Shown: piece by piece, positions 7,202 through 34,304 of the stretch
Layout: each line of letters begins with the position of its first letter
Numbering within the stretch: position 1 is the first letter of the stretch
DNA from: Lysobacterales bacterium
GTDB taxonomy: Bacteria > Pseudomonadota > Gammaproteobacteria > Xanthomonadales > SZUA-5
Assembly (NCBI GenBank): GCA_041745855.1
Contig: JBGTIE010000568.1
Location: 1-34,612, forward strand
Direction of reading: 5' to 3'
Length of the DNA stretch: 34,612 nt
Notes under the pieces: model-generated
Told to the model about the DNA's origin: nothing
Databases searched by the model: none
The model's input: only the letters and a program-made list of their open reading frames with translations
Program-made: the position numbers and the translations under genes

Positions 7202-7211
7202 AATAGCGCTC

Positions 7212-9031: not shown

Positions 9032-9033
9032 GC

Positions 9034-9851: not shown

Positions 9852-10694
9852 ATGAACTTCGCAACGCCGATCCTTTCTAAGACGAGACGTCTTGCGGTCC
9901 CCGCGAATTGTCTCAATCTGTCGTCCCTCAACAGCTCCACGCAACTCCTCGCCGCGATGAAAGCCGTTCTCCGGGGCGAGGTACTTGCCATAGTTTCGTC
10001 GATTGAGCCCGAGGTCGCCCACAAGGCGGCAACAGTTGCTTCGACGGTCGCTGTAAACGACTACCGCGTCGCACCGGGCTTTGCGTTTCAGGCTGATGCT
10101 GCGCCGCTCTTCGAGGCTCGGACGGAGCAGGACGTCGCGGACTATTTGTCCAACGGCACCGCCTATGAGAGGCGTTTTGCTGCACGAATGCGCCCTCTGC
10201 CAACGCCGGCCGAACTCGTGGAAGAAGCGCTGGCCGCGGCATGGCCAGGTGGCTTGAGTCGCTTGCTTCTTCATGGGAAGCGCGCGCCTTTCGGCGTCGT
10301 GCGGCACCTCCAGCCTGGCGCCGGCGTGGCGCCGCACACTGACAACAGCGACCTCGATCGGCCGGACGTGCTCGCGTTCGCGCGCGCGCGAACGAATCTT
10401 TCTGCGCTCGTCTATCTGGAGCCTGGCCTCGGCGGCGAATTGTGCATCTGGAGGAGGCGGTTAACCACCAGGGAGGAGATTCGCGCACTTCGCGTTGAGG
10501 GCCATGCGTACGCAATTGACACGCGGGGGTTCCCCGCACCCATCGTGATCTCCCCTAAGCCAGGGATGGTGGTGATTTTTGACGCCAAGTATGTCCACGC
10601 CGTCTTGCTGAATCGCGGTGGAACGCCACGCGTGACTCAATCGGGCTTCGTTCTGGTGGGCGATCTCGACGACTCGCTCCAAACGTACTACTGA
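9852..10694 (+). CDS. 2-oxoglutarate/Fe(II)-dependent oxygenase superfamily protein
   Basis: It shows APHTDNS (HxD), SALVYLEPGLGGEL, VIFDAKYVHAV (distal His) and RVTQSGF (2OG-binding Arg). This order and spacing are typical of prolyl-hydroxylase-like 2OG oxygenases. The start codon is not verified. Confidence 0.72.
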   Translation: MNFATPILSKTRRLAVPANCLNLSSLNSSTQLLAAMKAVLRGEVLAIVSSIEPEVAHKAATVASTVAVNDYRVAPGFAFQADAAPLFEARTEQDVADYLSNGTAYERRFAARMRPLPTPAELVEEALAAAWPGGLSRLLLHGKRAPFGVVRHLQPGAGVAPHTDNSDLDRPDVLAFARARTNLSALVYLEPGLGGELCIWRRRLTTREEIRALRVEGHAYAIDTRGFPAPIVISPKPGMVVIFDAKYVHAVLLNRGGTPRVTQSGFVLVGDLDDSLQTYY

Positions 10695-12798: not shown

Positions 12799-13944
12799 TC
12801 AATGCGATCCGCCCAGCGCTTCCGCCGCATGCAGATCGTCGGCTTCCCGCCAGCGAGCGTTAGTTGCGCTGTGCTGTTCCAATAGACGCGATAGCTGCAC
12901 GACAATGTCGCCTGGCTGCGGGCGGCCAGCGGCGCCCAGACTCGCGATCAGTTCCGCCTGCCGACTCGTCGACACCGTCCCATAGCTGACAAACGTGGTC
13001 AGCACACCCTCATGCCCGAGGTTCTGGCTCCAGGCCTTGAACTCTTCGGGGGTCGTGCAGCGTTCCAGGCCGAGGGCGACCAAGGTCTTGCGAAGGCTGT
13101 GGGGATTGAAGTACGGCAGCCCTGCCTGCTCGAAGGCCTGGCGAAAGATCTGGCGTATCGGGGTTGCATTGCTCCAGTGCCCGTGCTCGAGTCCTGCTGC
13201 GCTGAACTGCTTGCCGGCGCCGACTTCAACGTGCGTGCGCGGGAAAAGGGCGTCATCGTCACCCCAGAGACGCTCCTTGCGTAGATGCGTCACCCAATCG
13301 ACCACGATGTCGCGTATTTCGTCGCCAACCGGGAAGAAGACGGTCGTGAAGGTCTTGCTGAACTTCGTCCTGACTTCCCGGGCATCCTGGAAAACGCGAT
13401 GTCTCGCGACATCGACATGCTTGAGCTTCATCGACGCCACGGCGCTGTCCCTGGCGCCGGTCAGCAGGATCAAGGCGATCAATGCGCGGTTGCGCAACTC
13501 GATGTCGTTGCCGGCCGGCATCGTGGCGATGACATGCCGGACCTGCTCCAGTGTCGGGCCCGAGGTCTCTCGACGGGCCGTGGCGACCCGGCAGTCCTTC
13601 TCGGAGAGGTTGAAGTACTCGGCGTCTGAGTACCTGACCCTTCTGGTGTAACCCGGTTCCCTGGCCAGCCACTCGATGAAGCGTTTCAGATGCGACACGA
13701 TCGCATACTGAGTCGCCTTGCTCAGGGCCTTCTCGGATCCGGCCGCGCCTGCGAGCCGCTTCTTGAAGGCGATGGCCTGCTCCCTGTGAAAATCCTTGAA
13801 GGCGCGATGGCCGGTGCTGGTCTCGAAGCGCGCCAGGGCCGCCGCGACAGCGTCGATGCTGCTCTCATCCTTCTGCTTTGCCTCTCGCAGAAACAGGAAG
13901 TACTTGCGCTTGATCCGCTCGTTCTGGACGTTGCGTTTTCTCAT
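12799..13944 (-). CDS. Tyrosine recombinase (phage-integrase family), internal to the island
   Basis: LLTGARDSAV (catalytic Arg box), HSLRKT (HxxR) and LGHEGVLTTFVSYG (His...Tyr box) are present. The N-terminal region is a SAM-like core-binding domain. There is an ATGA overlap with the upstream gene. Confidence 0.9.
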   Translation of the reverse strand: MRKRNVQNERIKRKYFLFLREAKQKDESSIDAVAAALARFETSTGHRAFKDFHREQAIAFKKRLAGAAGSEKALSKATQYAIVSHLKRFIEWLAREPGYTRRVRYSDAEYFNLSEKDCRVATARRETSGPTLEQVRHVIATMPAGNDIELRNRALIALILLTGARDSAVASMKLKHVDVARHRVFQDAREVRTKFSKTFTTVFFPVGDEIRDIVVDWVTHLRKERLWGDDDALFPRTHVEVGAGKQFSAAGLEHGHWSNATPIRQIFRQAFEQAGLPYFNPHSLRKTLVALGLERCTTPEEFKAWSQNLGHEGVLTTFVSYGTVSTSRQAELIASLGAAGRPQPGDIVVQLSRLLEQHSATNARWREADDLHAAEALGGSH

Positions 13945-14447
13945 GTCTGATTGCTCCTCTTGAAGTCACTGTTCACGGAAGCGCTGGCGTTCTCGCCTAT
14001 GTGTTGCTCTGCTTCCGCGAACTGGAGCTCCAGATCGGCAACCACCTGCAGCAACTTGGACTTCGACACGCGCCTGAACATCCAGCCATCGCAGGCCGGG
14101 CAGATGCCGACGAGGTTGCCGTTGGTCGGCGTCATTGGCTGAAACTCCACCATGTCACCTGCAGGACGCCGCGGTAACCGACAGCGCACGCAGTAGATCT
14201 CGGCCGGCCCACAGGGCTGTTTGTTCGCCCGGCGCCGGGACGTCAGATAGGCACTCAGGTCACAGCCCAGGATCAGGAACGGCCGCTGCTCGGTCAGCGC
14301 GGGGAGTCCGCGGCGGACCCAGTCGCGCACCGTGTTCTTGTGCACGCCGAGCAGATCGGCGGCTTCGCCGAAGGTGTAGTTGCGATGGATCTTGACCCGG
14401 CGCGGATTGGGCAGGCGCCGGTGTGTCCTCTGGGCTGAATCTGACAC
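13941..14447 (-). CDS. Excisionase/MerR-like HTH protein with C-terminal Cys4 zinc ribbon
   Basis: The track ORF is 13941..14519, which would overlap the AlpA gene by 70 nt. I prefer the GTG at 14447, 2 nt after the AlpA stop. It shows YTFGEAADLLGVHKNTVRDWVRRG (HTH) and CVRC...CPAC (zinc ribbon). Confidence 0.62.
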   Translation of the reverse strand: MSDSAQRTHRRLPNPRRVKIHRNYTFGEAADLLGVHKNTVRDWVRRGLPALTEQRPFLILGCDLSAYLTSRRRANKQPCGPAEIYCVRCRLPRRPAGDMVEFQPMTPTNGNLVGICPACDGWMFRRVSKSKLLQVVADLELQFAEAEQHIGENASASVNSDFKRSNQT

Positions 14448-14449
14448 GG

Positions 14450-14680
14450 TCAGCCACCGGTGCCGCGGCTGACCTGGATCTGCTGGGCCAGCCAAGCGTC
14501 GACTTCGGCCGCGACCCAACCGACGCTGTTGCCTCCGAGTCGGATCGGCTTGGGGAAGGTCGGGTCGTGGCGCCGCGACTTGGGATCGAGCTTGTCGTAG
14601 ATGGTGCTGCGCTTGAGACCCACGCGGGACTCAACCTGCCTGCGGCGAAGTATCGTGATGGAGCGGTTTGGGTCGGACAT
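14450..14680 (-). CDS. AlpA-family (prophage CP4-57-type) transcriptional regulator/excisionase
   Basis: ILRRRQVESRVGLKRSTIYDKL...FPKPIRLGGNSVGWVAAEVDAWL is the AlpA signature. The ATG is at 14680 with GGAG upstream. Confidence 0.85.
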   Translation of the reverse strand: MSDPNRSITILRRRQVESRVGLKRSTIYDKLDPKSRRHDPTFPKPIRLGGNSVGWVAAEVDAWLAQQIQVSRGTGG

Positions 14681-14736: not shown

Positions 14737-14771
14737 ACCGCAATTGCGGTTGGCGCGACCGCAATTGCGGT
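14737..14771. promoter_or_regulatory. Twin perfect 14-bp palindromes ACCGCAATTGCGGT spaced 21 bp centre to centre; candidate operator upstream of the AlpA-recombinase module
   Basis: Copies lie at 14737-14750 and 14758-14771, each its own reverse complement. They sit 57-91 nt upstream of the AlpA start. The second copy overlaps the stop codon of the upstream ORF. Confidence 0.55.
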
Positions 14772-15814
14772 CAGAGAGGCAGGCTACGCTTGGCCTCCGC
14801 AAACTTTGTTTCCAGCGTCCGCTGAGACATCCCGGGCTTTCCTCTATGCTCGGCCAGAAGCGCGTCGATGACTGCGGCCTGATCCTTGAACACTGAAAGC
14901 GGCTTGCCGGAAGGGCTCTTGCCCAGCAGTAGGCCGAGCAGTCCGCCGACTATATTGAGCAACGTGGATTCTCGCCGTTTCGCGAGTGGCCGCTCTTCTT
15001 CCCATGCCTCTTCGGATAGCTTGCGCTTCAGCGCCCGGAGCACCTCGGTTCGCACAACCCAGACCGCGTCTTGGGGGAGTTGCGACGTCGGATAGTAGCC
15101 AGGACCTCGATCGAGAAGCTTCTTCCGATGCGCTCGGTGTGTCTCCAGCAGATGATCCGCTTCATCACGGAGGATCTGCTCGTCGTGAATTCGTGCCTTC
15201 AATACTTCCAATTCGGCCCGCGATCCCTTCACGTACGGGTTGTTGTCTTCGTTCTCCAGCAGCTGGAAGAAGACTCCCGCGCGCTGGACGAACACTCCAT
15301 CGAACCTTGTCCAGGAAACCTCAGGACCACGAGTGGCTTCCTGATAGCGCTTCTCTACCTCGAAGCGGTCGCCGCCAATCATCACGAGGTCCCAGACGCC
15401 ATCGATGACTTTCTGCGCTGGATCCACGTCCAACCACTGGTCGTTGTCGGAATAGCGGACGGCATCAGGGAGCAGAAGAATCTCCTTGTTGTCGATTTTC
15501 TCCTGCAGACCCGGGTGCCTTTCATGCAGTTCAGCCAGCTTGTAGGACTGGGCCGGAGGCAACTCGGGAATCGTGGTCTTGAAGGCCTCGAGGTCGAGCG
15601 GACGCCATTTGCACTCGGACAGTGGGACCAAGCGTGCGCTCCTGGCAGCTCGCTTGTTGACCAGGTGAACCGACAGCACAAGCTTCCCATCGAGGACCAG
15701 GCGCAGTACGTCGGCAACGACCACCCTCTCTTCCAGCAATTCGCCCAGAAGTCCTGCTGCTTCGTCGAGGGTGACCCACTCCTTTAGCTGGAACAGCTTG
15801 CTCGTCTTGCCCAT
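14771..15814 (-). CDS. Hypothetical protein (347 aa; possible N-terminal HTH)
   Basis: The track ORF is 14771..15907. The ATG at 15814 (MGKTSKLFQLKEWVTLDEAAGLL...) avoids a 59-nt overlap with the HNH gene, but neither start has a clear RBS. I recognised no catalytic motif. Confidence 0.55.
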   Translation of the reverse strand: MGKTSKLFQLKEWVTLDEAAGLLGELLEERVVVADVLRLVLDGKLVLSVHLVNKRAARSARLVPLSECKWRPLDLEAFKTTIPELPPAQSYKLAELHERHPGLQEKIDNKEILLLPDAVRYSDNDQWLDVDPAQKVIDGVWDLVMIGGDRFEVEKRYQEATRGPEVSWTRFDGVFVQRAGVFFQLLENEDNNPYVKGSRAELEVLKARIHDEQILRDEADHLLETHRAHRKKLLDRGPGYYPTSQLPQDAVWVVRTEVLRALKRKLSEEAWEEERPLAKRRESTLLNIVGGLLGLLLGKSPSGKPLSVFKDQAAVIDALLAEHRGKPGMSQRTLETKFAEAKRSLPL

Positions 15815-15848
15815 TGATCGACTGACCCGTTGTTCGATTTGCAGAATC

Positions 15849-16676
15849 CTACGCCGGATGGCCGGAGTCTTGCCTGCGTCCACTATCGGCTGGCAGATGC
15901 CCGCCATGGTCCGAATTTGCGAACTTCACGCGGTGATATGCCAGATATCGCTGATGCTCATCCGCGATCCAACGCAATCGCGGACGTTCATCCAAACGCA
16001 GCGTAGCGAAGTCCTGAGACGGAATCCTTGGCGAGACCAGCATGCCACCCTCGATATCGAAGCTGATCAGGTAGCGGTCGAACAGGGCATCCAGGTTTGC
16101 CGTGAGCAGGAGGCCATTGAAGACATCGAGCCGCTCGGCGTCTGTCGCACACTCCGCCCAGGGCTTGGCATGGCTGGCGCGCAGAACTGCGCTGATGGCC
16201 ACGCCGGTGACGGCGCAGGCGCCGCCCCAGTAGTCCAGCAAGGCTGCCCGAAAGACATCTTGTCCGACGCGCTGGCGGACCAGGCGCTCAATCTCGGTAC
16301 CTAGAGCTGCGACTGGCAAGCGCCGCAGTTCAGTATTGACCGTCTGCTCGTAATCCTTCTCGGCCTGACGGGGCAAGGCCCGCGCCAGCGCCGCGGCACG
16401 GCGAAGCAATAGCGCAAGATGATCACGGTCGGTCGCTTCGAAGTCGTTGCCGCCCAAGTGCAACTCGGGCCAACTGCGGCCCAGTTCGTCTATCAGCGAA
16501 CAACGTGAGGAAGATTCGAAGCCGAGTCTCCATCCACGCGGCAACGTAGCCACGATGACTCGCGCGGGATGCAGCGCCGAGCCCATCCGGACCTCGGAAA
16601 GCGACCCATCCTTCACATGCTCGAAGCCATTGTCGTGACCGGCCTTTTCCACGAGCACTCGCTCCAAAGGGTTCAC
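15849..16676 (-). CDS. HNH nuclease (HNH_2/PF13391-like) with an uncharacterised N-terminal domain
   Basis: RQRVGQDVFRAALLDYWGGACAVTG...LRASHAKPW...DVFNGLLLTANLDALFDRYLISF matches my memory of the restriction-type HNH_2 domain. The GTG start overlaps the upstream stop as GTGA. Confidence 0.82.
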   Translation of the reverse strand: MNPLERVLVEKAGHDNGFEHVKDGSLSEVRMGSALHPARVIVATLPRGWRLGFESSSRCSLIDELGRSWPELHLGGNDFEATDRDHLALLLRRAAALARALPRQAEKDYEQTVNTELRRLPVAALGTEIERLVRQRVGQDVFRAALLDYWGGACAVTGVAISAVLRASHAKPWAECATDAERLDVFNGLLLTANLDALFDRYLISFDIEGGMLVSPRIPSQDFATLRLDERPRLRWIADEHQRYLAYHRVKFANSDHGGHLPADSGRRQDSGHPA

Positions 16677-16897: not shown

Positions 16898-16974
16898 CGG
16901 ACCATCCTGGCTTGCGTTTCACAGTAGCAAAGGCTATGCTCCCAAGACTCATCAGCCCAAGGCTGAAGGAGCTG

Positions 16975-16997
16975 GGCCAACGCCACGTGCGTTGGCC
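16975..16997. terminator. 9-bp stem / 5-nt loop hairpin just downstream of the defence operon
   Basis: The sequence is GGCCAACGC-cacgt-GCGTTGGCC, 18 nt beyond the stop of the 162-aa gene. The T-run (TTACTTTTTCT) is on the plus-strand side, so it is not a textbook minus-strand intrinsic terminator. Confidence 0.3.
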
Positions 16998-17014
16998 TTA
17001 CTTTTTCTGCCGCA

Positions 17015-17503
17015 TCAAGATTGGCGCTTTGCATACTTGTTCTGCAGGCTGCGGCGCTTGCTTTCATAGTCAATCCAGTACGCCGTAATCAGCCTTCGTT
17101 GCCCGTCTGGATAGCGCTTCATCACGACCACGTAGTCACAGGCTTCCAGCCAGAGGTAGGTACGGATCTCGCCGCTACCCTCCTCGAAATCCCAGCTCCT
17201 AACGGCCGGATCGCTTAGATGATCGAATAGTGCGCGCGCCCAGGGGAGCCTTTCGCAGCGACGAAAGTCTGGCAGGCGGTTTCCCGAGCCCGGTGGATCC
17301 TCTCGTTCTGTCAGGTGCCAGAAGATCAGTTCCTTGCCGCGCTCCCTTTCAGGGAAGAACCAGACGCGTCGACCATGGTAGAGAGGTGGGTTCAGGATGA
17401 AGTCCTGACGAAAGGTCGCATAGAGCGTATGAAGAACCGCCTCGTTCCAGGGCGATATCGGCATGAGTTGCGGGAGCCACTCCGGTGTGTCGGGTTCGAT
17501 CAT
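17015..17503 (-). CDS. Hypothetical protein (162 aa), last gene of the defence operon
   Basis: The ATG at 17503 overlaps the DUF3800 stop as ATGA. The sequence is Trp/Arg-rich (LIFWHLTERED...RLPWARALF...YLWLEACDYVVVMKRY...ITAYWID). I recognised no family. Confidence 0.65.
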   Translation of the reverse strand: MIEPDTPEWLPQLMPISPWNEAVLHTLYATFRQDFILNPPLYHGRRVWFFPERERGKELIFWHLTEREDPPGSGNRLPDFRRCERLPWARALFDHLSDPAVRSWDFEEGSGEIRTYLWLEACDYVVVMKRYPDGQRRLITAYWIDYESKRRSLQNKYAKRQS

Positions 17504-18225
17504 GCCGCCACGGGCCTTCGTGGGGTGAATAGGAAAATGTTGAGCTTCTGTTCCCTGAGCGATGTTGCCCGCAACAGGCTGTGGCCCCAGCGTTCTTCAA
17601 TACGGCGGATGACCGCCTGCTTCGCGGCGTTTCCGTGAAGCCCGCGGTGGCGGTAAGCGAGGGCGCCGATCAGAAAATCTGCCACTTGCATCAACTCGGC
17701 TTCATGTGAATGAACGTTCTGAATGTGGCAGATCATCTCGCTGGTGAAGTCGTACACGTTGCTGCACAGCACTTCGCGCAGCTTCTGCACCTTCTTGCGG
17801 CTGCGTGTGTCCTTGATGTCGAGGTAGATCGCGTAGCAGCTGTCGGGCGAAAGGATCTTGCTCAGTAGTGAGAACTGCATCTTGTAGTAGAAGAGGTCAT
17901 GATCGCCTTGGTTGAAGGCCGTATGATCCAGTGCCTGTTTGTTGTGGACCACAAGTCCACGAAAATGCAACGACGACTCGCCGATGAACCAGTCCACCAG
18001 GTCCAGGTAAAAGGGAAGGCGGGACGCAGATGCCTTGGACCACTTCAACTCGCCGCGGGCACTGTGCCTTCGCTTGAGGTCGCGCAATTCCGCGGACAGT
18101 CTCCGCGTCTGGTCCTGCAGACACCAGATCGCGCCCAGCACCATGACCGGCTGGCCATCGTTCGGAAGATGACAGGACTCGTCGCAATAAACGTTGTATA
18201 GCTGGGGTTCGACGGTTGTGCTCAA
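17500..18225 (-). CDS. DUF3800-family protein
   Basis: It has N-terminal YNVYCDES (the DUF3800 acidic DE motif) and C-terminal ELMQVADFLIGALAY (the Q-x-A-D motif). The only start that preserves the DES motif is TTG at 18225, with GAGG about 10 nt upstream. Confidence 0.72.
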   Translation of the reverse strand: MSTTVEPQLYNVYCDESCHLPNDGQPVMVLGAIWCLQDQTRRLSAELRDLKRRHSARGELKWSKASASRLPFYLDLVDWFIGESSLHFRGLVVHNKQALDHTAFNQGDHDLFYYKMQFSLLSKILSPDSCYAIYLDIKDTRSRKKVQKLREVLCSNVYDFTSEMICHIQNVHSHEAELMQVADFLIGALAYRHRGLHGNAAKQAVIRRIEERWGHSLLRATSLREQKLNIFLFTPRRPVAA

Positions 18226-18309
18226 TGCAGATGACCTCGTTCGAGTCTTTCCCAGGCGTGCGGCGCGAAGCGATGGGTGCGGTAGCCGTCAAGCTTACCC
18301 GACTCCCTC

Positions 18310-20253
18310 TCACACCAGCTCCTGCTGAAGTGCGCCAAAGCGCCTGCGGAAGAGAAGCCCGTCCTCGCTATCTGCGGAAAGCGTAAGGCGTACGAACGGT
18401 TTGAAGTCGGGGGCAGGCTCGGTCGATGTGGTGACAATGTACTGGAACGCGCCGGCACTGTTCGAAGCAACGTGGCCCAGTAAGCGCCACAGCATGGCTT
18501 CGCTCATCTCCGCTTCGCGTGGGGAGTCGTGGAGCAGGAACCCAGGATGGAAGCTCTGCGCTGAAGTGCTATCCAGCAGGCAGGCGATGTCGCCGGCAAG
18601 GATCTCCAGAACACTGAAGGTCGTCGAGTGCATCGGACCCATCCGGAATGGGCGGTTCTGATGTTTCTCGTCATCGTTGAACACACCCCAGGTGAATCCC
18701 GGCAACGCGTTGGCGACGACATTCATGGTCTCGCCAAGGCTGTGCCGTCGCGCGCCCATCGCGCCACGCTCCGCTTCATGTTTGCCTCGAAGTACTTCGA
18801 GCCGATGCCTCCCTCCCTGCAGCCTCTGTTGCGCATTCACCAATTCGATCCAAGGGGAGCTGCCGGCGATGACCGCTTCGTAGTTCTCGTAGTCGTCAAT
18901 GGCCCCGCGGAGCAGCTCATGCCTGGACACGGTTTCGGCGTGTCGCCTGTCCAGATCTCCAATCCGCGACTCGATCTTCGTGAGTTGGTTATCGTAAGGT
19001 GCAGTCTCGGCGCTCAGAAGCTCACGTCGACCGCGAAGGTCGACCAGCCTGCGCTCGCGAAGGCGCTGAGCCTCGTGATGCCGCTTGATGCTCTGCGCGC
19101 GATCGATCTGGTCCAGCTCGATGCGCTCGTTCACGTGGCGGCAGTCCTTGAGCAGCAGGTGCCCAGCATCGCACCATGTCGCGAGCCTCTGCTGCAGGGA
19201 CGAAGCCTCCTTCTGTAGCTCGTCAACCCGATCGAGATCGCCCGCGTTGAACGCTTCCAGCTGCTCGATCTCGTTGTTGACCAGCTCGATCGACCTCTTG
19301 AGCGGGAAGCGCTTTTCAATCAAGGCCTCGCGCTCTGTCGCACGTCGTAGCCGCTCAGCGTCGATGGATTGAAGCTCTTCCTGATACGCATCATGTCGCT
19401 GGCGGGCAATAGCGATCAGATTCGGGTGGTCAATCAGTCCGTCCTGTCGGAACGGAACTTCATCCGGAACGTCAAGCAATCGGCTCAGCTGTCGACGCGC
19501 GTGAGTCAGGAGGTATTGGGGCTCCTCGCTAAGCGCCTGCAATCTCGCCTCTAGCTCGCTGACCTCCTTGCTGGCGCTGTCCAGGTCCCGAAGGGCCGTG
19601 GCGTCTTTCAGCAGGCCGAGGACGATTCGAAGCAATGCCACAGGGGACTTCGCCGGCAAGCTGAATCCGACGCCTTCGGCACGCCATTGGAAGTAGTTCT
19701 GGTAGCGGGCATTCTGGTCACGCGAGCACCAGGCCAGGAGATGATGCCATTGGATGGGCTGCTTCGATCCTGGCAGCTCCTGCACTGGAAGGACGCCGAC
19801 CAGATGCTGTTGCAGCGCTGCTTGATAGGCGTCGAACTCATTGTCCGACACATTGGCAGCCAATCTTCTCCAATCGGCGTTGCGCGAAGCCCGGTAGTGC
19901 TTCTGATGCTGCCATGGTTTCAACACAGTCCAGGCTTCGCCGCCGACGTGAACGCGGGCCGCGACCCCGCCTTCCTTCAGCTCTGCGCAGAACAAGAGTT
20001 CTTCGCGCAAGTTGGAGCCTTCAGACCAAAGTGGATCGTCCAGGACGAAGCGCAGCAACTGGCAGAAGGCGGTCTTGCCCACCCCATGCCCTGAGCTGCC
20101 GCTTGCTGGCGGAGAAACGACCAGATTGAGCCCGCGCCCAAAGGTGATCTCGCGCACAGGCTGCTCGGATGTCAGCGAATCCAGCAGCCACAGCGTCTCC
20201 ACCCACAGGTGCGGCCTGTCTGAGCCGACTGCGCGGGCGCCGACTTCAGGCAT
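18310..20253 (-). CDS. ABC/SMC-like P-loop ATPase with a long coiled-coil insertion (DUF2326/YydD-like)
   Basis: ITFGRGLNLVVSPPASGSSGHGVGKTAF is an N-terminal Walker A. A charged, heptad-like segment of about 300 aa follows (EVSELEARLQAL..., LRRATEREALIEKRF..., VDELQKEASSLQQRL...). The C-terminal region has GFLLHDSP (Walker-B-like) and FQYIVTTS. Confidence 0.82.
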   Translation of the reverse strand: MPEVGARAVGSDRPHLWVETLWLLDSLTSEQPVREITFGRGLNLVVSPPASGSSGHGVGKTAFCQLLRFVLDDPLWSEGSNLREELLFCAELKEGGVAARVHVGGEAWTVLKPWQHQKHYRASRNADWRRLAANVSDNEFDAYQAALQQHLVGVLPVQELPGSKQPIQWHHLLAWCSRDQNARYQNYFQWRAEGVGFSLPAKSPVALLRIVLGLLKDATALRDLDSASKEVSELEARLQALSEEPQYLLTHARRQLSRLLDVPDEVPFRQDGLIDHPNLIAIARQRHDAYQEELQSIDAERLRRATEREALIEKRFPLKRSIELVNNEIEQLEAFNAGDLDRVDELQKEASSLQQRLATWCDAGHLLLKDCRHVNERIELDQIDRAQSIKRHHEAQRLRERRLVDLRGRRELLSAETAPYDNQLTKIESRIGDLDRRHAETVSRHELLRGAIDDYENYEAVIAGSSPWIELVNAQQRLQGGRHRLEVLRGKHEAERGAMGARRHSLGETMNVVANALPGFTWGVFNDDEKHQNRPFRMGPMHSTTFSVLEILAGDIACLLDSTSAQSFHPGFLLHDSPREAEMSEAMLWRLLGHVASNSAGAFQYIVTTSTEPAPDFKPFVRLTLSADSEDGLLFRRRFGALQQELV

Positions 20254-20259
20254 GTCGCC

Positions 20260-23200
20260 TCATCCTCGCTTGCGCGAGACAGGCTGCGCCTGCGATGCCG
20301 AACCTGCCATTGTTGCCTCCAACGCGGTCTCGTGTTGACGACGCGCTTCAATCAACGCCTGTGCCAGCGACTCGGTGCGCGCATCGCCAATCACGTCGGT
20401 GAGTACATCGGGCGCGCGAACGGAGAGCGGTGCCGTGACGGGAACGCCGAGCAGGGAGCGCAGCCAGTCGCAGAGATGTGGCCAGCGTGCGTTGCTCAGC
20501 GCAACCCGCCAGCGGTCGAGTTCTTCGGCATACCGGGTGCTTGAAGGAAGCGGTGTGGCCAGAATCAAGCGCAATTGAGTGTCGTCGCAGGGCCCGGCTT
20601 GCAGGAGCACGTCGCAGACCAGGCCGGCAAGGAAATCTTCGGCTTCGGAGGCCGGAGTGCCGCCTTCGGCATACATGGGCAGGGGTGCCGTACGCCGCGC
20701 TGGAATGGTGAGGCGTTTCTGAACTTCCAGTGCATCCCAGGCTTCCAGCACCAGGCGCTGGGTGCGGTACTCGCCATGGGCCTTGAGTTCGTTCTTCTGC
20801 AGGACGCGAAAGGTCTCGGAGGGGTAGTCCGGGCCTTCGATGTCGGCGGGGTCGAGGATATAGCGCAGTTCGTCGCGGGTGAGCCCGTAGGCGCGGGCGT
20901 ACCAGGCGTCGAGTTCGGCGCGCAGGTGGGCGCGGCGATCGGGGTCAAAGCGGAAGGGCGGACCTTCGAAGCCGAGTTCGCGTGCCCAGGGTTCGAGGTC
21001 CCAAGCGGTGTATGTGAGTTCCAGCACTCGGGGGACGATAAAGGCCAGGTCGCCAGCGACAAAGTCTTCCGGGCCTGGAAGAGGCAACTGACGCAAGAAG
21101 TAAAAGCTAAAGTTCATGCCGCCAACCTTCTGGCGCGCTACATAGTCAAACGTCAGCGAATTGAGCCCGGCCAGAAGACAGGCTTGCGCAACGGCGTTGC
21201 GAGCCGGACAGAGCAGGAAGATGCTGTCTCCTGCCCCGCTCATAGGAAGGACATTCGCGATCATCGTCCTTTCGTCCGTGGATCGAGAGTTCCTTCGCCA
21301 ACCCAACAGCCACTGCCACTCCCAGTCCTTGTCCGTCAACCGTCGCCGCACGTCGGCCCCCTCCACCCAGTATCGCGGCGTGGGAGTGAAGCGCGGATTG
21401 GCCTTCTCGGCTTCAGTCACGTCGCGGCTGCCGACATCGCCCTTGCCAGCCTGACCTTTCTCGCTGGCTTCGTACGTAGCCCAGCGGTGGTCGAACTGGT
21501 GGATCATCTTGGCTTCGTACAGCGGCAGATCTCTTTCGCTCGCGGAGTCCGCGAACAGATGGCTGTCGCTTGACATGTTGTGCGTGCCTTGCATGAAGCG
21601 GATACCCCAAGGGTTCCGCTCCGGTCGGGTGCCGCGCCCCTCGCGGATGAGCACGGGCACGCGAAGGTAGATCTTGCGGGTCAGCTCGGCATCGCGCCTC
21701 GCACGAAACACCGGGCAAGTCAGCGTATTGGGGTTGATCCGAGTGAAATCTTCCGCACCCAGCGTGAATCGTCGGCGCGGATCTGTCAGTTGCCCGATCT
21801 GGGTGAGGAAGAACGCGAACTCCGCTTCAGCGGCTTGGCCCAAAGTCAGCAGGCAGAACTTGTAGCTACGGTGGACACCGGGAAAAATCCCCTCACGGTT
21901 CTCGAAGTCGTACAGACTGGCCAGCCGTCCACCCGACGCAATCGCTCCGAAGTAGGCCTTGGTCGAATCGTCGGTGGCGATGCCGGTCGGCACGATGAAG
22001 CCGGCACGACCGTTCGTGTCCACGATTTGGCTGATGGTCTCGGCGAACAGCGCATACGTGTTGACACGTCCAACCCCGGTCAGCCGATAGCGGCCACCGT
22101 CCTCACCGTCCACATGCGCGAACGTGCTGGCTGCGTCCAAGTTGCGCTTTGTGGTAAGAAACTCGCGATAAAGGCGCTGCTCGGCGAGGCAGACCGCTAT
22201 GCCTTGATCCCGATCAGGGTAGAGGTTGTGCGCCAACCTGCCTTGGGCCAGCCAGTCGATGCGATGGCTGCGCTCGGCCTTGTTCTTCGCCTGCGCCACT
22301 AGCGGATTGCGGGTGGCAAAGAACTCTTCCTCCTTCAGCTCAACATGTTCCCAGGGCGGATTTCCCAACACGCAATCGAAACCACCCTGTGCGAACACTT
22401 GCGGAAAGGTCAGCGGCCAGTGCAATACGCGTGCCTCGCGGCAAGCCGCGCGCGCGGCACCAAGCTGCCGGGCGTGCAGCGCGCCCGGCGTAGCCCCTAA
22501 CAGCTCGAAATAGAGTGACTGGCTAGTCGGGATCTGTTCGGCACTGGCTTGGGTCTTGGGCAGCAGAAATGCACCGAGTAGCAGGTCAGCTGCATGAGCG
22601 AGGTGGCTGGACTCTGCCTGCTGCTGAAATGCTTGCCATGCCGCGGCGCGAGCTTCGATGTCCGCCGTGGTGGCGTCGGGTAGCGCCTCCAGCGCCTTGA
22701 GCTGATCCATGCCGCTGGCGACGTCGAAGCGCATCAGCTGTTGGCCACGATTGAGGTCGCGCTCCAGCTGCTTGAGACCCAGCTTGTTCGCCTTCGCAAG
22801 TTCCCTGCACACGTCCTTGTCATCGCCGGACAGCGGCTTGAAGGCCGCCGCCGGGATGCCGGCCTCCAGCGCCTTGAGGTCAGTAATGCCGAGTAGGGCA
22901 TCGCCGCATTGCAGGTGATGATCGAGAAAGGATAGCGGTCTGCCCTCCTCAAAGCCCTCCAACCACAGGGCCGTGCGGCACAACTCTCTCGCCATCGGGT
23001 TGCGGTCGACGCCGTAGATGCAGCGGCCGATGACTTCACGCAAGGCATGACGATAGTCCGGCTCGAGGACAGCGCCCTCCACGCTGCGCAACGCGGCCAG
23101 GCGCTCGGCCAGTCGCCGGGCAGCTGCTAGCAGGAAGTGCCCGCTACCGCATGCCGGATCTATCACCTTGATACTAAGCAGGGCCTCGGTGGGGTTGTCG

Positions 23201-24693
23201 GGGCACTCGGCCAGACGTGCATTGATCACCGGGTCCAACGCGGTGCGAATCAACTCGGCAACCAGCGTGTCTGGGGTGTAGTAACTACCGCTGATCTTGC
23301 GCGCATGGCCTTGGGTGCTGCCCTCGCTGGTCAGGCCGACGAAGCCGAACCGGCGCGCGGATAGTTCCAATTCCGGCACCAGCTCAAGCAGGCTCTCGTA
23401 GACGCTGCCCAACTCCTCAGGGCCCATGTTTCGATAGTCGATCGGCACCCGCAAACCGCCGACACCGGCCCAGCGCAGTTGCTCCAGTGCGGCGAGCAGA
23501 TCAGCATTGGCGAGACTCGCTACGTCCAGGTCCGGACACTGTTCTGCGGCGAACAAGCCGCCCAGCGCCGGCAGCGCCAGTCGCGCTTCGCCATCCCGCA
23601 GGCCGCGGAAGACGATACGGGTGGCTTGCCAGAGATCCTCGAAGCTCGTTCTGGCGCGCCGCTTGAGCACGCGCTCGCGCAAGCGAGCCTGGGAATAGCC
23701 TTCGGCGTAGGCACGGCGAGCCGCAACGGCTGTCGGGCTGTCATCGTGCGGATGCAGCAGCCCGCGCTCCTCGACGGTGAAGACGAAGATCAGCCGATAA
23801 ATCAACCGCAGCAACTGCTCGAAGTAGCCGTCCTTGTCCAGCTGGCCATCCTGCAGGCGCTGACGCAATGTGCCGTTGCCAGAGTGCTGGAGAAAGCCGT
23901 TCCCAAGCGCAAGCAATGCGCTCGTGACACCGCTGCGCAAGCCCTCCCTGACTCGAGTGCCTTCCTCACGACCGGTCTCGCGCCAGTTCTCCCAGATGCA
24001 TGCCTGGGCTGGCGCGCCCGCTTGGCCGGCGCGGCTGGCATGCAACAAGCGCCAGACCAGCGGGAACTCGGGATAGCGCTGGGCGCCGAGCAGATCCTGC
24101 AGGTCGAACTCCAGATAGCTGGGGCGGGTTAGCGTCGCCGCATCGCGCAGCAGGCGCAGCTGACGACCGTTGCTGACGATGCCCCACAGATGGTCGTCGC
24201 TGGCATTGAGGAATTCCTGCGCCAGCTGAAATGCCGACTTGCGACGGCTGCCGCTACCGCTGACTGCGAAACGTTCATCGGGATCGTCCAGGCCCAGGTT
24301 GTGCGGCGCCACGACCACAGGCAGCACGCCCGCGATGAGTTGCACAGGGTATCGGCGCTCAGCGAGTGCCATGCCGTCGATGGCGTGAATGCCGTGGTAA
24401 CCGAAGGCATCTTCGAGCAGTTCCCGCACGAAGGCGTGCGTCGTTGAAGCTGGATCCAGGTCGGTGCGTTCAAGCATGGAGGCAAAGTGCTTCCATTGCG
24501 CCGAAGCGATCTGGAAAGCACGGCTGAAATCATCCTTCAGCTTGAGCCCCTTGGGCGTCCCGTAGTCAGCTTCGGCTTGCCGCGCGGCCTGTCCGTGCGC
24601 AGCCTTCTCCAGCTGATCTGGGAGGAACAGTCCGCCCACCAGACGCAAGCAAGGCAGGTCAAGCGCGGCGTGCTGTCCTCGAACGCGCTTCAT
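20260..24693 (-). CDS. Large gamma-class N6-adenine DNA methyltransferase (DISARM DrmMI / Eco57I-like)
   Basis: YYTPDTLV, VIDPACGSGHFLLAAARRL (SAM motif I) and VLGNPPWEH (NPPW motif IV) are present. It is 1477 aa with long N- and C-terminal extensions. There is an ATGA overlap with the SNF2 gene. Confidence 0.9.
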   Translation of the reverse strand: MKRVRGQHAALDLPCLRLVGGLFLPDQLEKAAHGQAARQAEADYGTPKGLKLKDDFSRAFQIASAQWKHFASMLERTDLDPASTTHAFVRELLEDAFGYHGIHAIDGMALAERRYPVQLIAGVLPVVVAPHNLGLDDPDERFAVSGSGSRRKSAFQLAQEFLNASDDHLWGIVSNGRQLRLLRDAATLTRPSYLEFDLQDLLGAQRYPEFPLVWRLLHASRAGQAGAPAQACIWENWRETGREEGTRVREGLRSGVTSALLALGNGFLQHSGNGTLRQRLQDGQLDKDGYFEQLLRLIYRLIFVFTVEERGLLHPHDDSPTAVAARRAYAEGYSQARLRERVLKRRARTSFEDLWQATRIVFRGLRDGEARLALPALGGLFAAEQCPDLDVASLANADLLAALEQLRWAGVGGLRVPIDYRNMGPEELGSVYESLLELVPELELSARRFGFVGLTSEGSTQGHARKISGSYYTPDTLVAELIRTALDPVINARLAECPDNPTEALLSIKVIDPACGSGHFLLAAARRLAERLAALRSVEGAVLEPDYRHALREVIGRCIYGVDRNPMARELCRTALWLEGFEEGRPLSFLDHHLQCGDALLGITDLKALEAGIPAAAFKPLSGDDKDVCRELAKANKLGLKQLERDLNRGQQLMRFDVASGMDQLKALEALPDATTADIEARAAAWQAFQQQAESSHLAHAADLLLGAFLLPKTQASAEQIPTSQSLYFELLGATPGALHARQLGAARAACREARVLHWPLTFPQVFAQGGFDCVLGNPPWEHVELKEEEFFATRNPLVAQAKNKAERSHRIDWLAQGRLAHNLYPDRDQGIAVCLAEQRLYREFLTTKRNLDAASTFAHVDGEDGGRYRLTGVGRVNTYALFAETISQIVDTNGRAGFIVPTGIATDDSTKAYFGAIASGGRLASLYDFENREGIFPGVHRSYKFCLLTLGQAAEAEFAFFLTQIGQLTDPRRRFTLGAEDFTRINPNTLTCPVFRARRDAELTRKIYLRVPVLIREGRGTRPERNPWGIRFMQGTHNMSSDSHLFADSASERDLPLYEAKMIHQFDHRWATYEASEKGQAGKGDVGSRDVTEAEKANPRFTPTPRYWVEGADVRRRLTDKDWEWQWLLGWRRNSRSTDERTMIANVLPMSGAGDSIFLLCPARNAVAQACLLAGLNSLTFDYVARQKVGGMNFSFYFLRQLPLPGPEDFVAGDLAFIVPRVLELTYTAWDLEPWARELGFEGPPFRFDPDRRAHLRAELDAWYARAYGLTRDELRYILDPADIEGPDYPSETFRVLQKNELKAHGEYRTQRLVLEAWDALEVQKRLTIPARRTAPLPMYAEGGTPASEAEDFLAGLVCDVLLQAGPCDDTQLRLILATPLPSSTRYAEELDRWRVALSNARWPHLCDWLRSLLGVPVTAPLSVRAPDVLTDVIGDARTESLAQALIEARRQHETALEATMAGSASQAQPVSRKRG

Positions 24694-27476
24694 AGGGCGT
24701 CCGGGAGCAGTACGTAGACGCCAATCAGATCAAGCGGCAAGCAGGGGCTCACGCTGTACTGGCCGACGTCACGGGCGGCCTCGCGCACGCGGCGGTGATC
24801 TTCCAGCAGGGCTTGCGCACGTTCGTCGGCAAGGGATTCCAGCTTTTCAGGGTGAGCGCGAAGGAAAACCATCGCCGCCTCGATTTCGTGCTGGATCTGA
24901 GCTGGGGAGAGGTTGCCGCTGGGCTGGCACTGGAGCAGCGCATCGGTGCTGGACTCGACTGACCAGACCGGTGAGGCGCGACCGCGCACAGCCAGAGTGA
25001 GTGTTTCCTCAGCCATCAGCTGGTGGGGTTGGCGACGGCGGACGTAGCTCAGCTGATGACGCAGGCGTAGCAGGTAGAGGGTGGTGACGACCTCCACATC
25101 GCCCGTGACGGTTGCCGCGCAACGCGCGGCCATGGGTTGCTCGCCCTGAAGTGTGTCCTCCAGCAGATGTTCGGCAATCACGGTCACCAGCGGATGACTG
25201 CGATGAAGCTGAGCCAGATCCAGCGTGTGAGGCAATGCCAGACCTTCGTCTTCCAGTCGCAGCCGCAGGGGCTCGGGGAAGTGCTGTGGCAGGAACCGTA
25301 CATGGTCCTTGCGCAGCGGTTCTAATGGCGAGTTCAGGCGCGCGCAGGCGCTCCGCAGGAAGCGATGCACATCGGCCTGATCGCCCAGGGCCTGCTGCTG
25401 CTTGCGCCATTCCGGCAACACTTCGTCAGGACGGATTCGGCGCTGGGCAAAGACGGTGCGGTTGGCCTTGGCCTTGTCCAGCGCGTCACGCCACTGCGCC
25501 TGGAGCGGTTCGAGCAGTTGTTCGGATTCGCCGAAATCGAAACTGGCCTGGGGTGAGTTATGTTGGGCGTCGCTGCGCTTCATCAGCGCGGCCTTGACCA
25601 GTGCCTGATTGATGCGCAGTTCGTCCTCGGGCATGGGCACCAATACACCAAGTTCCTTCTGGATCGCCTCGCCTTTGCGCAGGATCACATTCAGGACGAA
25701 GCCATCGACAGGGTTGTCCTGACCATAGAGCATCGTGCAGCGCACGCTCTTGGCTTCCTGCCCGAAGCGATCGACCCGGCCCTCGCGCTGTTCATGACGG
25801 GTGGGGTTCCAGGCCAGGTCGTAATGCACGACGGCAGTAAACAGATGTTGGAGGTTGATACCTTCCGAAAGGCAATCGGTGGCCACCAGCACGCGCCGGT
25901 TTGCTTCGGTCATGCTCTCGACACGGTCCTTGCGTTCGTCGGGGGTCTGCTCTCCGGTCACCGCCTCCACCAGAACATCTGGAAAGTCGCGCCGCAGATG
26001 TTCGGCGACATAGTGCGCCGTGGCCACATAGCGACAGAAGACCACGACATGGAAGCCATCCGACAGCAACTCCTGCAAGTGGCGAACCAGGACTGAAAGC
26101 TTGGGATCAGTCGCACGGCCGGACAGGCGCTGGGCTTCGCCAATCAAGGATTGCAGACGCAGGGTGTCCTGCAATTGTGCTGGTGGCTCCAGATCGCTGC
26201 CGGACAGATCATCAGCCTGACCATCGTGAAGGCGGTCGTCCAACAAGTCCGAGGCTTCGTCGACGGCAGCACCTTCCAATCGCGTGGTCAGGGCTTTCAC
26301 AGCGGCCGCGGGCGAGGAGGCGACACAGCGCAGAAGTGCCAATGTGGCGTACCAGATCAGGCGAGCGCCACCGCCCCCGGCGTGTTGCATGCTTTCGGCC
26401 AGATCTCGGCAATAGGCCTGCACCGAATCGAAGAAAGCGCCCCATTCGCCGCTGAGCTGATAGGTGATCTCGGTCTTCATGCGGCGGGGGAAGGCGCGTC
26501 CCTCTGAAGACTCGATCTGCCATTCCTCGATATCCTTTCGGCGGCGCTGAACGAAGTGCCGCGCCAGCCGTTGGCGCAATGGGTGGTCGGCCGAGTTATG
26601 ACCCTGCAGGCCGGCGAATTCCGGATCGAGCAAGGCAATCAAGTTGTAGAAGGCCGCTTCGTCCCCGGAGTGAGGCGTAGCTGTGAGCATTATGAGGTGC
26701 CGCTCGGGATCGACCAGAAGGCGCTGCAGCAACTCGTAGCGCAGCTGCTTGCCGCGGCCTCCGGTTGCGCAAGTGTGCGCCTCGTCTACGATCAGGCACT
26801 CCGGCGCGATGCTGAGGAAGTGATCTCGGTGGCGTTCGCTCTTGATGTAGTCAAGGCTGACGACCACGATCCGATGATGCTCAAACAAACTTACGCCGTG
26901 CGGTAACTCACGCTCAACGCGGTTGGCAGTAGCCGCCGTGAGAGCGACTGCGGGCAAGTGAAAGCGATCGGCCAGCTCGCCCTGCCATTGATCGACGAGA
27001 TGCGGCGGACAGAGCACGGCCGCTCGGCCGATCTCCCCGCGGTCCAGCAGTTCGCGTACGATCAGGCCGGCTTCGATGGTCTTTCCGATACCGACGTCAT
27101 CGGCGATGAGCAGACGAACGGTAGACAAGCGCAATGCCATCAACAAAGGAACCAGCTGATAGGCCCGGGGTTCGACACCAATGTTGCCGAAGGATCGGAA
27201 CGGTCCAGCACCGGCGCGCAACTTCAGCCGCAGCGCATCTCGCAGAAGCAAAGCGCCCGCATGAGTACCTGGCCGCGTTGGGTCCGGCCAGTGGAAACTC
27301 GCTGATTCGACTGGATCGAGCTCCAGGTCAGGGATAACGCCGACGACATCTTCGTCTGCACCGCCGAGTGGACGCAGTCGCAGCCAATCCGGCCTTGAGT
27401 CGCCGAGTACGACCCACTCGCGGCCGCGTGCGCGAACGAGATTACCCGGTTGGAATGAGAGGCCCGATTGCATCAT
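24690..27476 (-). CDS. SNF2-family helicase (DISARM DrmD-like)
   Basis: ADDVGIGKTIEAG (motif I), IVDEAHTC (II), LTATPHSG (III), LSEGINLQ (V) and WNPTRHEQREGRVDRFGQ (VI) are present. The N-terminal region shows G..VRARGREWVV. Confidence 0.9.
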   Translation of the reverse strand: MMQSGLSFQPGNLVRARGREWVVLGDSRPDWLRLRPLGGADEDVVGVIPDLELDPVESASFHWPDPTRPGTHAGALLLRDALRLKLRAGAGPFRSFGNIGVEPRAYQLVPLLMALRLSTVRLLIADDVGIGKTIEAGLIVRELLDRGEIGRAAVLCPPHLVDQWQGELADRFHLPAVALTAATANRVERELPHGVSLFEHHRIVVVSLDYIKSERHRDHFLSIAPECLIVDEAHTCATGGRGKQLRYELLQRLLVDPERHLIMLTATPHSGDEAAFYNLIALLDPEFAGLQGHNSADHPLRQRLARHFVQRRRKDIEEWQIESSEGRAFPRRMKTEITYQLSGEWGAFFDSVQAYCRDLAESMQHAGGGGARLIWYATLALLRCVASSPAAAVKALTTRLEGAAVDEASDLLDDRLHDGQADDLSGSDLEPPAQLQDTLRLQSLIGEAQRLSGRATDPKLSVLVRHLQELLSDGFHVVVFCRYVATAHYVAEHLRRDFPDVLVEAVTGEQTPDERKDRVESMTEANRRVLVATDCLSEGINLQHLFTAVVHYDLAWNPTRHEQREGRVDRFGQEAKSVRCTMLYGQDNPVDGFVLNVILRKGEAIQKELGVLVPMPEDELRINQALVKAALMKRSDAQHNSPQASFDFGESEQLLEPLQAQWRDALDKAKANRTVFAQRRIRPDEVLPEWRKQQQALGDQADVHRFLRSACARLNSPLEPLRKDHVRFLPQHFPEPLRLRLEDEGLALPHTLDLAQLHRSHPLVTVIAEHLLEDTLQGEQPMAARCAATVTGDVEVVTTLYLLRLRHQLSYVRRRQPHQLMAEETLTLAVRGRASPVWSVESSTDALLQCQPSGNLSPAQIQHEIEAAMVFLRAHPEKLESLADERAQALLEDHRRVREAARDVGQYSVSPCLPLDLIGVYVLLPDAL

Positions 27477-27479
27477 TGA

Positions 27480-34235: not shown

Positions 34236-34274
34236 GGCATTCCCCCGTGATGTGTGCCCATGGGTGAAAGGCTG

Positions 34275-34304
34275 GTGTGCCCAGATTGTCCGATCTGGGC
34301 ACAC
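34275..34304. promoter_or_regulatory. Perfect 12-bp inverted repeat with 6-bp spacer upstream of int; candidate operator or core/arm-type site
   Basis: The sequence is GTGTGCCCAGAT-tgtccg-ATCTGGGCACAC, 40-70 nt upstream of the proposed int start. Both arms contain the TGGGCAC heptamer that is also repeated nearby. Confidence 0.5.

Follow-up and report, generated by a model that had tools for sequence, protein, structure and literature searches.

An SMC-like ATPase of a DISARM-like operon and a separate P1 rlfAB-like cassette with a predicted small RNA in a Lysobacterales bacterium

Contig JBGTIE010000568.1 of a Lysobacterales bacterium was analyzed over a window of 34,612 nucleotides (nt), the whole stretch of DNA to which all coordinates refer. 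The window contains a DISARM-like operon whose genes all lie on the (-) strand. Between 17015 and 20253, directly behind the methylase of this operon, are genes encoding a coiled-coil ATPase, a DUF3800 protein and a protein of 162 amino acids (aa), followed by a conserved element on the opposite strand. An earlier note, made from the sequence alone, had proposed that the three proteins form one undescribed sensor-effector module. The open reading frames (ORFs), the 6-nt gap between the methylase and the ATPase gene (20260 versus 20253) and the protein motifs that it listed are present as it described them. The features of the interval are:

18310-20253, (-) strand: SMC/LmuB/YydD-like coiled-coil ABC ATPase, 647 aa, ATG start
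17500-18225, (-) strand: RlfA-like DUF3800 protein (PDC-M04A), 241 aa, TTG start
17015-17503, (-) strand: RlfB-like protein (PDC-M04B), 162 aa, ATG start
16945-17008, (+) strand: predicted small RNA of about 62 nt, convergent with rlfB, by covariance model R1
16912-16940, (+) strand: weak sigma-70-like promoter of the small RNA (TTGCGT, 17-nt spacer, TATGCT)

The ATPase carries a Walker A motif (GHGVGKT, residues 55-61) and, near its C-terminus, the motifs FLLHDSP (572-578) and FQYIVTTS (603-610). All three are invariant over 63 homologues, and the Walker B motif reads hhhHDSP instead of hhhhDE. An AlphaFold2 model (pLDDT 79.5) predicts an ABC head into which a helical arm of some 300 residues (long helices 219-516) is inserted. 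Foldseek searches of the PDB with this model recovered Bacillus subtilis YydD (6e-14), four chains of Lamassu LmuB (8e-10 to 6e-7), and then Smc, JetC and Rad50, in agreement with the RecF/SMC/DUF2326-type design with a coiled coil of about 300 aa proposed earlier. The PADLOC model of LmuB gives partial matches (4e-13); the score for Pfam DUF2326, 23.4 bits, stays under the cut-off of 28.7.

Pseudomonas aeruginosa commonly carries homologues of the ATPase (45-70% identity), and one sequence occurs on 269 contigs. The comparison covered nine loci from genomes and 19 from metagenomes, together with that of the closest distinct relative (70% identity). A DrmMI-like methylase is encoded immediately 5' of the ATPase in all 29 homologue loci with upstream sequence, and the same SNF2 and DEAD/MZB helicases precede the methylase wherever upstream sequence exists. 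None of the loci compared contains the DUF3800/162-aa pair. Instead, the gene 3' of the ATPase is either an HNH_2 endonuclease gene (eight loci) or the start of a guest cassette that is itself followed by HNH_2. In P. aeruginosa, the guest consists of an AAA_15/DUF3696 ATPase and a 176-aa protein that match PADLOC HEC-03B (2.5e-132) and HEC-03A (2e-24), and HEC-03 has been validated experimentally as an anti-phage system (Payne et al. preprint). The closest distinct relative of the ATPase is likewise followed by a HEC-03-like cassette, not by rlfAB. Because in these loci the ATPase is always directly behind the DrmMI-like methylase and never with the pair, we assign it to the DISARM-like operon, as a lineage-specific accessory fourth gene that is outside the downstream cassette.

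A gene encoding an RNA_ligase domain always follows the HEC-03-type pair in this slot (L001-L009, L103, L108, L109, L111 and L118, from P. aeruginosa, Alicycliphilus and others). HEC-03 as published is without this trailing gene.

The protein encoded after the ATPase is confirmed as a DUF3800 member (Pfam PF12686, E 4e-17, 63.6 bits against a cut-off of 21). Its YCDES (residue 13) and QVADF (residue 180) segments include the N-terminal DE (D15-E16) and C-terminal Q180-x-x-D183 motifs of the family. Across 71 sequences, D15, E16, H19, D136, K138, D139, Q180 and D183 are invariant. The PADLOC model PDC-M04A (PDLC04353) matches residues 8-236 of its 241 residues (1.2e-90), and on the same strand the adjacent 162-aa protein matches PDC-M04B (PDLC04360; 2.3e-45). 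The two genes overlap by an ATGA at 17500-17503, the stop of the first and the start of the second, in line with the translational coupling that had been suggested. The second protein is indeed rich in Trp and Arg (8 and 19 residues, respectively). It has no family match in Pfam or NCBIfam. It is not the orphan it had been taken for, as it matches PHROG 16230 and, by tblastn of phage genomes, is a homologue of RlfB of phage P1 (RapB of P7).

Identity to the P1 proteins is 48% for RlfA (E 2e-79) and 29% for RlfB (E 3e-15), and the PDC-M04A and PDC-M04B models also recover the two P1 proteins. In P1, rlfA carries a DUF3800 annotation, and rlfB starts at the position where rlfA ends. By sequence, the pair thus belongs to the rlfA-rlfB family of phage P1, which is also the PADLOC candidate PDC-M04. 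What had been called undescribed is therefore already catalogued, but uncharacterised. The P1 genes resemble the window pair in gene order, in the overlapping stop and start codons, and in a small-RNA motif behind rlfB. They differ in context, as the P1 copy is on a phage-plasmid beside repL and the window copy is in a chromosomal island within a DISARM-like operon.

A scan for the pair in one genome per species gave 80 loci. The DUF3800 gene is directly 5' of the rlfB-like gene in about 70 of these, and the remainder are truncated. Around 40% of the loci are nested in type I, IIG or III restriction-modification (R-M) operons or in DISARM-like operons. Within two genes upstream of the pair (about 65 loci) we find HsdS (17), HsdM/N6_Mtase (12) and Eco57I-type methylases (9), and within two genes downstream HsdR (12-13), the commonest arrangement being hsdM-hsdS-[pair]-hsdR. 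Other copies are behind type IIG enzymes, a type III system, or a DISARM-like methylase, and some adjoin housekeeping genes (glyS, pnp, genes of sugar metabolism). The closest relative of the 162-aa protein (79% identity) is in a locus ordered helicase-SNF2-methylase-DUF3800-162aa-HNH_2, without the ATPase, and M. agile has the same arrangement. A relative of the ATPase was found in only three of the 80 loci (L024, L025 and L029), where it is diverged and upstream of the pair.

These three loci favor a reading in which the ATPase, the DUF3800 protein and the 162-aa protein constitute one sensor-effector system, similar to Lamassu or ABC-3C, or the effector arm of the DISARM-like genes. The contiguity of the genes on one strand in the window, the LmuB-like fold of the ATPase and its partial match to the PADLOC LmuB model also fit such a system. 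However, the linkage on which it depends is not conserved, and the reading is essentially refuted for this reason. The pair is found in 0 of the 28 genome and metagenome loci of the ATPase, and the ATPase is missing from about 67 of 70 pair loci. The closest relative of either part occurs without the other, and the pair is present in P1 and in type I R-M operons that have no such ATPase. Even in L025 the ATPase and the pair are separated by a gene encoding a 1321-aa protein with a reverse transcriptase domain. Membership in Lamassu (LmuA-LmuC-LmuB, or DdmABC) was rejected: the predicted fold of the ATPase resembles LmuB and YydD most (ABC head and antiparallel coiled coil of about 300 aa), but neither downstream protein is matched by an LmuA or LmuC model, the ATPase is fixed between the DrmMI-like methylase and the HNH_2 side, and it is not co-conserved with the pair. 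Membership in ABC-3C was rejected as well, as no middle-component family was found in the 162-aa protein (Pfam, NCBIfam) and DUF2326 is below threshold. A single three-protein system is thus very improbable. Of the linkage that the earlier note had named as the test of its proposal, the adjacency of the two small genes is conserved and that of the ATPase is absent. Its alternative, a stand-alone system within the operon, is correct for the pair.

The best explanation, to which we give a probability of about 0.72, is that the interval contains parts of two systems: the ATPase of the DISARM-like operon, and an independent cassette of rlfA, rlfB and a small RNA that would act as a toxin-antitoxin-like abortive-infection module. 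The rlfAB genes are an independent mobile cassette in the cargo slot of the operon. The reverse transcriptase-domain gene of L025 (Lautropia mirabilis; 5253-9218, (+) strand), between the diverged ATPase and rlfAB, is a further guest of the same slot.

The third component of the cassette is behind rlfB. The hairpin at 16975-16997, which had been read as the end of the operon, does exist (9-10 bp, at 16974-16998). A terminator scan places its T-run on the (+) strand, opposite to the operon, and the HNH_2 gene (15849-16676) follows on the operon strand. Since the T-run is on the (+) strand and the hairpin belongs to a conserved element with a promoter of its own, we assign the hairpin as the terminator of a small RNA, and reject it as a plain operon terminator. 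The 53-65 nt behind the rlfB stop codon are 80-98% identical at the DNA level among loci, although identity among the RlfB proteins is no more than 50-68%. Read antisense to rlfB, the aligned loci have, in order, TTGAC-N17-nATAnT, about 7 nt, CUCAUC, a short hairpin, GAAGGAGUUG, a GC-rich hairpin and a U-run. From its sequence, the element is a promoter followed by a predicted small RNA of about 62 nt that ends in an intrinsic terminator, with the layout 5'-CUCAUC, hairpin, GAAGGAG(C/U)UG, GC-rich terminator hairpin, U-run. RNAalifold extends the helix, pairing the GAG of GAAGGAG with the 5' CUC.

Covariation supports this structure. When a structure drawn by hand is applied to 43 sequences aligned with MAFFT, pairing holds in 96% of cells, compared with 40-52% in slid controls; 10 of 17 pairs are changed on both sides, and the observed value is not reached in any of 500 shuffles. 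In the model-fitted alignment (79 distinct sequences), which leans to the structure of the model, the number rises to 13 of 17. G-U pairs versus A-C mismatches number 29 versus 10 on the strand antisense to rlfB. At a fixed distance upstream, 74% of 77 distinct regions match at least nine of 12 sigma-70 promoter positions, compared with 2% at random positions. The window copy folds into the consensus with a minimum free energy of -29.8 kcal/mol (z -5.15).

Covariance model R1 matches the window at 16945-17006 (67.8 bits, E 3.5e-18) and recovers the RNA in 79 of the 80 pair loci, always opposite rlfB and abutting its stop codon. M. agile is matched, as are Bifidobacterium phage Bbif-1 (29.2 bits) and P1, whose RNA diverges from the rest of the family (26.8 bits; L097 4451-4526, (-) strand). 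The P1 copy is opposite rlfB at about 52,903-52,978 of NC_005856, and we predict that its transcript starts near AUCUCAUC and is about 60-65 nt long. Over about 430 kb of loci with the ATPase only, R1 has no match. Neither the window nor 17 loci, P1 among them, gave a match to Rfam 15 (which includes DUF3800-I and DUF3800-IX) at the gathering threshold or at E<=1, and only noise appeared at E<=10.

In copies from loci of the Desulfobacterota type, the first hairpin is longer and holds about 15 inserted nt (consensus ...GGCNCUUACACC...GGAUGGCC...); these copies score 36-48 bits with the short-form R1. They are found in L057, L060-L062, L064-L069, L072-L074, L078, L079, L081 and L083, at about 10,500-10,600 of the 20-kb loci.

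Several other identities of the conserved element were tried and rejected. A small ORF does not fit, as the substitutions are compensatory stem changes. An anti-Shine-Dalgarno-like CUCCUUC in the 3' untranslated region of rlfB could have folded onto the ribosome-binding site of rlfA or rlfB, but this has no support: the longest matches to GAAGGAGTTG upstream of rlfA and rlfB average 3.1 and 2.9 nt, versus 2.5 nt in control genes. An integron attC-like site, suggested by the cassette behavior and the 3' palindrome, was set aside by inspection given that the core sites do not fit and the promoter is conserved. The window copy also includes a hammerhead-like CUGAUGA core, but the bases past GAUGAG are not kept in other loci.

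Copies of the RNA also occur in phages. An exact-pattern scan of IMG/VR, with the 5' half of the RNA only, returned 23 stretches (L119-L141; 189 kb, about 5 kb on each side). R1 recovers the full RNA in 21 of these at 40-72 bits (for example at 971-1030, (+) strand, of L126 and at 1083-1139, (-) strand, of L127), and the other two are weak. The recovered copies include the covarying terminator hairpin, which was absent from the search pattern. No relatives of RlfA or RlfB were found by tblastn or profile HMMs (E<=10) in the 23 stretches, which on longer contigs cover about 5 kb to each side of the RNA; P1 as positive control gave 1e-107 and 1e-22. Orphan copies come, for example, from IMGVR_UViG_3300037851_000345 and 3300020577_003271. 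The orphan RNAs are surrounded by typical phage genes, which encode PhoH, gp32, endonuclease-I-like proteins and a tail collar protein. By analogy with pseudo-ToxI, these orphan copies may be decoy antitoxins.

Convergent antisense RNAs are known from type I toxin-antitoxin loci such as txpA/RatA and par of pAD1. In type III ToxIN systems, phages reportedly carry mimics of the RNA antitoxin (pseudo-ToxI). The window RNA has its own promoter and terminator and abuts the rlfB stop codon, and the cassette resembles type I and III loci in having an own-promoter convergent RNA that shares its terminator hairpin with the protein operon, and in its orphan RNAs in phages. In contrast to these loci, the presumed toxin is a nuclease-like protein of 240 aa with a partner of 160 aa, rather than a membrane peptide or a ToxN-type RNase, and the RNA is not a tandem repeat.

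Other DUF3800 members have been modeled as RNase-H-like in published work. Given these models and the invariant D15, E16, D136 and D183, we presume that RlfA is the RNase-H-fold nuclease of the cassette; RlfB, we infer, is its obligate partner. The AlphaFold2 model of RlfB (pLDDT 94.9) has no significant match in the PDB, only weak hints of HigB- or BrnT-like toxins, and a fold search of BFVD found one uncharacterised homologue only. Sequence searches of the PDB with the ATPase, the DUF3800 protein and the 162-aa protein gave nothing useful.

In the proposed mechanism, RlfA would be the nuclease effector of the toxin-antitoxin-like abortive-infection module and RlfB would be required alongside it. 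The short-lived convergent RNA would keep the system off, either through antisense pairing at the rlfAB mRNA 3' end or through binding to the proteins. Release could be triggered when a phage shuts off host transcription, or by another signal of infection. The orphan RNAs of phages would then supply a decoy antitoxin. The ATPase, separately, would probably be a DNA-binding or DNA-end-sensing clamp that cooperates with the helicases and the HNH_2 nuclease of the operon, by analogy with LmuB and Rad50.

Several observations weigh against the two-system explanation or its parts. A sigma-70-like promoter was found in only four of the 21 phage orphan copies. No extended complementarity was detected between the RNA motif and the ribosome-binding sites of rlfA and rlfB, and the strict sequence conservation of the RNA exceeds the needs of simple antisense pairing. 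RlfB lacks a significant structural match, the best being a HigB-like toxin (probability 0.69, TM 0.30-0.38). A profile search found no solved homologue of RlfA, and its RNase-H fold is taken from other DUF3800 proteins. The role suggested for the ATPase in the operon is drawn from predicted fold and position alone, and the operon also occurs without it (M. agile, and the locus of the 79%-identity RlfB relative). In the literature we found no experiment on phage defence by PDC-M04 or RlfAB, the preprint of Payne et al. listing it as a candidate only. Finally, P1 rlfAB adjoins repL/oriL and is induced early in lytic growth, which fits replication as well as defence.

This last point is the basis of a different view, in which RlfA, RlfB and the RNA are a replication-linked module of mobile elements, acting in primer or R-loop processing or in copy-number control, and not in defence. 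The P1 genes are directly behind repL/oriL with a C1 operator near, and are induced alongside the early lytic replication genes; a DUF3800 protein modeled as RNase-H-like would suit such a role, and a small convergent RNA with a terminator resembles the counter-transcribed RNAs of plasmids. However, rlfA and rlfB (named for 'replication-linked function'; rapA-rapB in P7) are non-essential for lytic growth of P1, and other cargo replaces them in P1-like plasmids. Moreover, about 40% of bacterial copies are in R-M or DISARM-like operons and others are by housekeeping genes, with no replication genes near, and sister loci carry a validated defence system in the same slot. We consider a replication module unlikely.

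The nesting in R-M operons could also indicate that RlfAB is a latent back-up nuclease similar to PrrC, restrained by the host R-M or DISARM proteins and freed when a phage inhibits them. The pair is located between hsdS and hsdR, like prrC of type Ic R-M loci, and in many loci it is behind type IIG, type III or DrmMI-like methylases, at times with overlapping stop and start codons. Yet more than half of the loci, as well as P1, have no adjacent R-M genes, and the host systems are of four unrelated types. The cassette brings its own candidate regulator in the small RNA, and embedded systems function when cloned alone (Payne et al.). A dependence on host proteins of this kind thus seems improbable.

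A bolder reading is that rlfAB and the RNA of about 62 nt form a widespread RNA-antitoxin abortive-infection system, distributed from P1 to Proteobacteria, Bacteroidota, Chloroflexota and Firmicutes, nested in R-M operons, and countered by decoy RNAs of lytic phages. We put this forward tentatively, as an idea with somewhat less than even chances.

The preprint of Payne et al. (2024) defined PDC-M04 as a phage defence candidate by 'guilt by embedding', the host loci being those of BREX, DISARM and type I R-M. The window cassette matches both of its models and is embedded in a DISARM-like operon, in the way the candidates were defined. The supplement row reads '679 CAS_00034 FAM_00014>>FAM_00043', where 679 is apparently the count of RefSeq instances; the entry comprises two protein families (CAS_00034), and the preprint names no RNA component. 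A term search of its text and supplements found no link to P1 rlfAB, and none was present in the retrieved literature on DUF3800 and rlfA/rlfB, where we did not meet an RNA component either. A literature search for 'PDC-M04' in main texts gave nothing. Three results appear to be new: that PDC-M04 and P1 rlfAB are the same, that a conserved small RNA accompanies them, and that phages carry orphan copies of it.

Eleven other structured RNAs (DUF3800-I to -XI; Weinberg et al. 2017) are associated with genes of the DUF3800 family. Together with retron type VII and the TPR-DUF3800 proteins of Cas12a2-a3, these likewise combine DUF3800 with a dedicated nucleic-acid partner. Several of the DUF3800 RNAs end in intrinsic terminators and may be on either strand, like the window RNA. 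The latter differs in matching no Rfam 15 family, and its DUF3800 subfamily adds a protein partner, RlfB. The cassette is a twelfth, protein-plus-RNA case in the puzzle of DUF3800 genes that recruit structured RNAs. Tying PDC-M04 to rlfA and rlfB of P1 also connects it to a well-studied model in Escherichia coli, and the small RNA and its phage orphans suggest how the cassette may be controlled and possibly evaded. If RNA-antitoxin abortive infection were the correct reading, it would give a function to P1 rlfA/rlfB, which have been unexplained for decades, and a first working model for the use of dedicated RNAs by DUF3800 proteins.

The operon that hosts the cassette is composed of the following, in addition to the genes listed above:

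27480-32756, (-) strand: DEAD/MZB helicase, 1758 aa (Pfam, PADLOC, NCBIfam)
24690-27476, (-) strand: SNF2 helicase, 928 aa (Pfam, PADLOC, NCBIfam)
20260-24693, (-) strand: Eco57I/MmeI-type N6-adenine methylase, 1477 aa (Pfam, PADLOC, NCBIfam)
20260-32756, (-) strand: DISARM-like operon core, i.e. the two helicases and the methylase (DrmD 2.9e-84, DrmMI 1.2e-68, DruE 2.7e-83)
15849-16676, (-) strand: HNH_2 endonuclease gene (Pfam HNH_2 1.5e-11; PADLOC HNH 2e-19)

The operon is DISARM-class-1-like, and is arranged as DEAD/MZB helicase, SNF2 helicase, N6-adenine methylase, in some lineages the ATPase, a variable cargo slot, and the HNH_2 nuclease. It resembles DISARM class 1 (DrmD, DrmMI, DrmA, DrmB, DrmC) in its SNF2 helicase, its methylase of the N6-adenine type, and its DEAD helicase carrying MZB (DUF1998). 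Unlike class 1, the DEAD/Helicase_C and MZB domains are fused in the 1758-aa protein, and the PLD protein DrmC is replaced by HNH_2 and the SMC-like ATPase. The NCBIfam model DISARM_DrmD gives 327 bits for the SNF2 helicase, below its cut-off of 610. Because the 1758-aa helicase scores far better on DruE (2.7e-83) than on DrmA (3e-15), we regard the operon as a combination of DISARM-like and Druantia-like parts. Hma (helicase, m5C methylase, ATPase) shares the helicase-methylase-ATPase logic and the hosting of embedded defence cassettes. An assignment to Hma was rejected, as the methylase is of the N6_Mtase/Eco57I type, not m5C, and the ATPase has no HmaC match. The operon thus fits neither the DISARM class 1 nor the Hma definition cleanly.

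The HNH_2 gene is the last gene of the operon in all related loci, whether the ATPase is present or not, and follows the ATPase or the cargo in P. aeruginosa, Alicycliphilus, M. agile, Acidithiobacillus and metagenome loci. It is likely the nuclease of the operon in place of DrmC, a position that had earlier been given to the three genes upstream, and it is the far border of the cargo slot that houses the rlfAB cassette. More generally, genes that are contiguous in a defence operon may belong to separate systems because such operons have cargo slots. When DISARM-like loci of Pseudomonas and its relatives are annotated, the SMC-like ATPase and the terminal HNH_2 gene should be treated as parts of the operon and the genes between them as guests.

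The 378-aa ORF directly 3' of the HNH_2 gene (14771-15907, (-) strand) has no match in Pfam, PADLOC or PHROG. No tRNA genes were found in the window. The operon is bordered by genes encoding two tyrosine integrases and an AlpA/MerR-like HTH protein (32931-34304, 12799-13944 and 13941-14519, all on the (-) strand), and the whole region looks like an integrative island. Between 4000 and 8000, the GC content falls to 0.49-0.54, compared with 0.61-0.66 elsewhere, in a stretch that includes a 573-aa ORF with a methyltransferase domain (4300-6021) and may represent separately acquired DNA.

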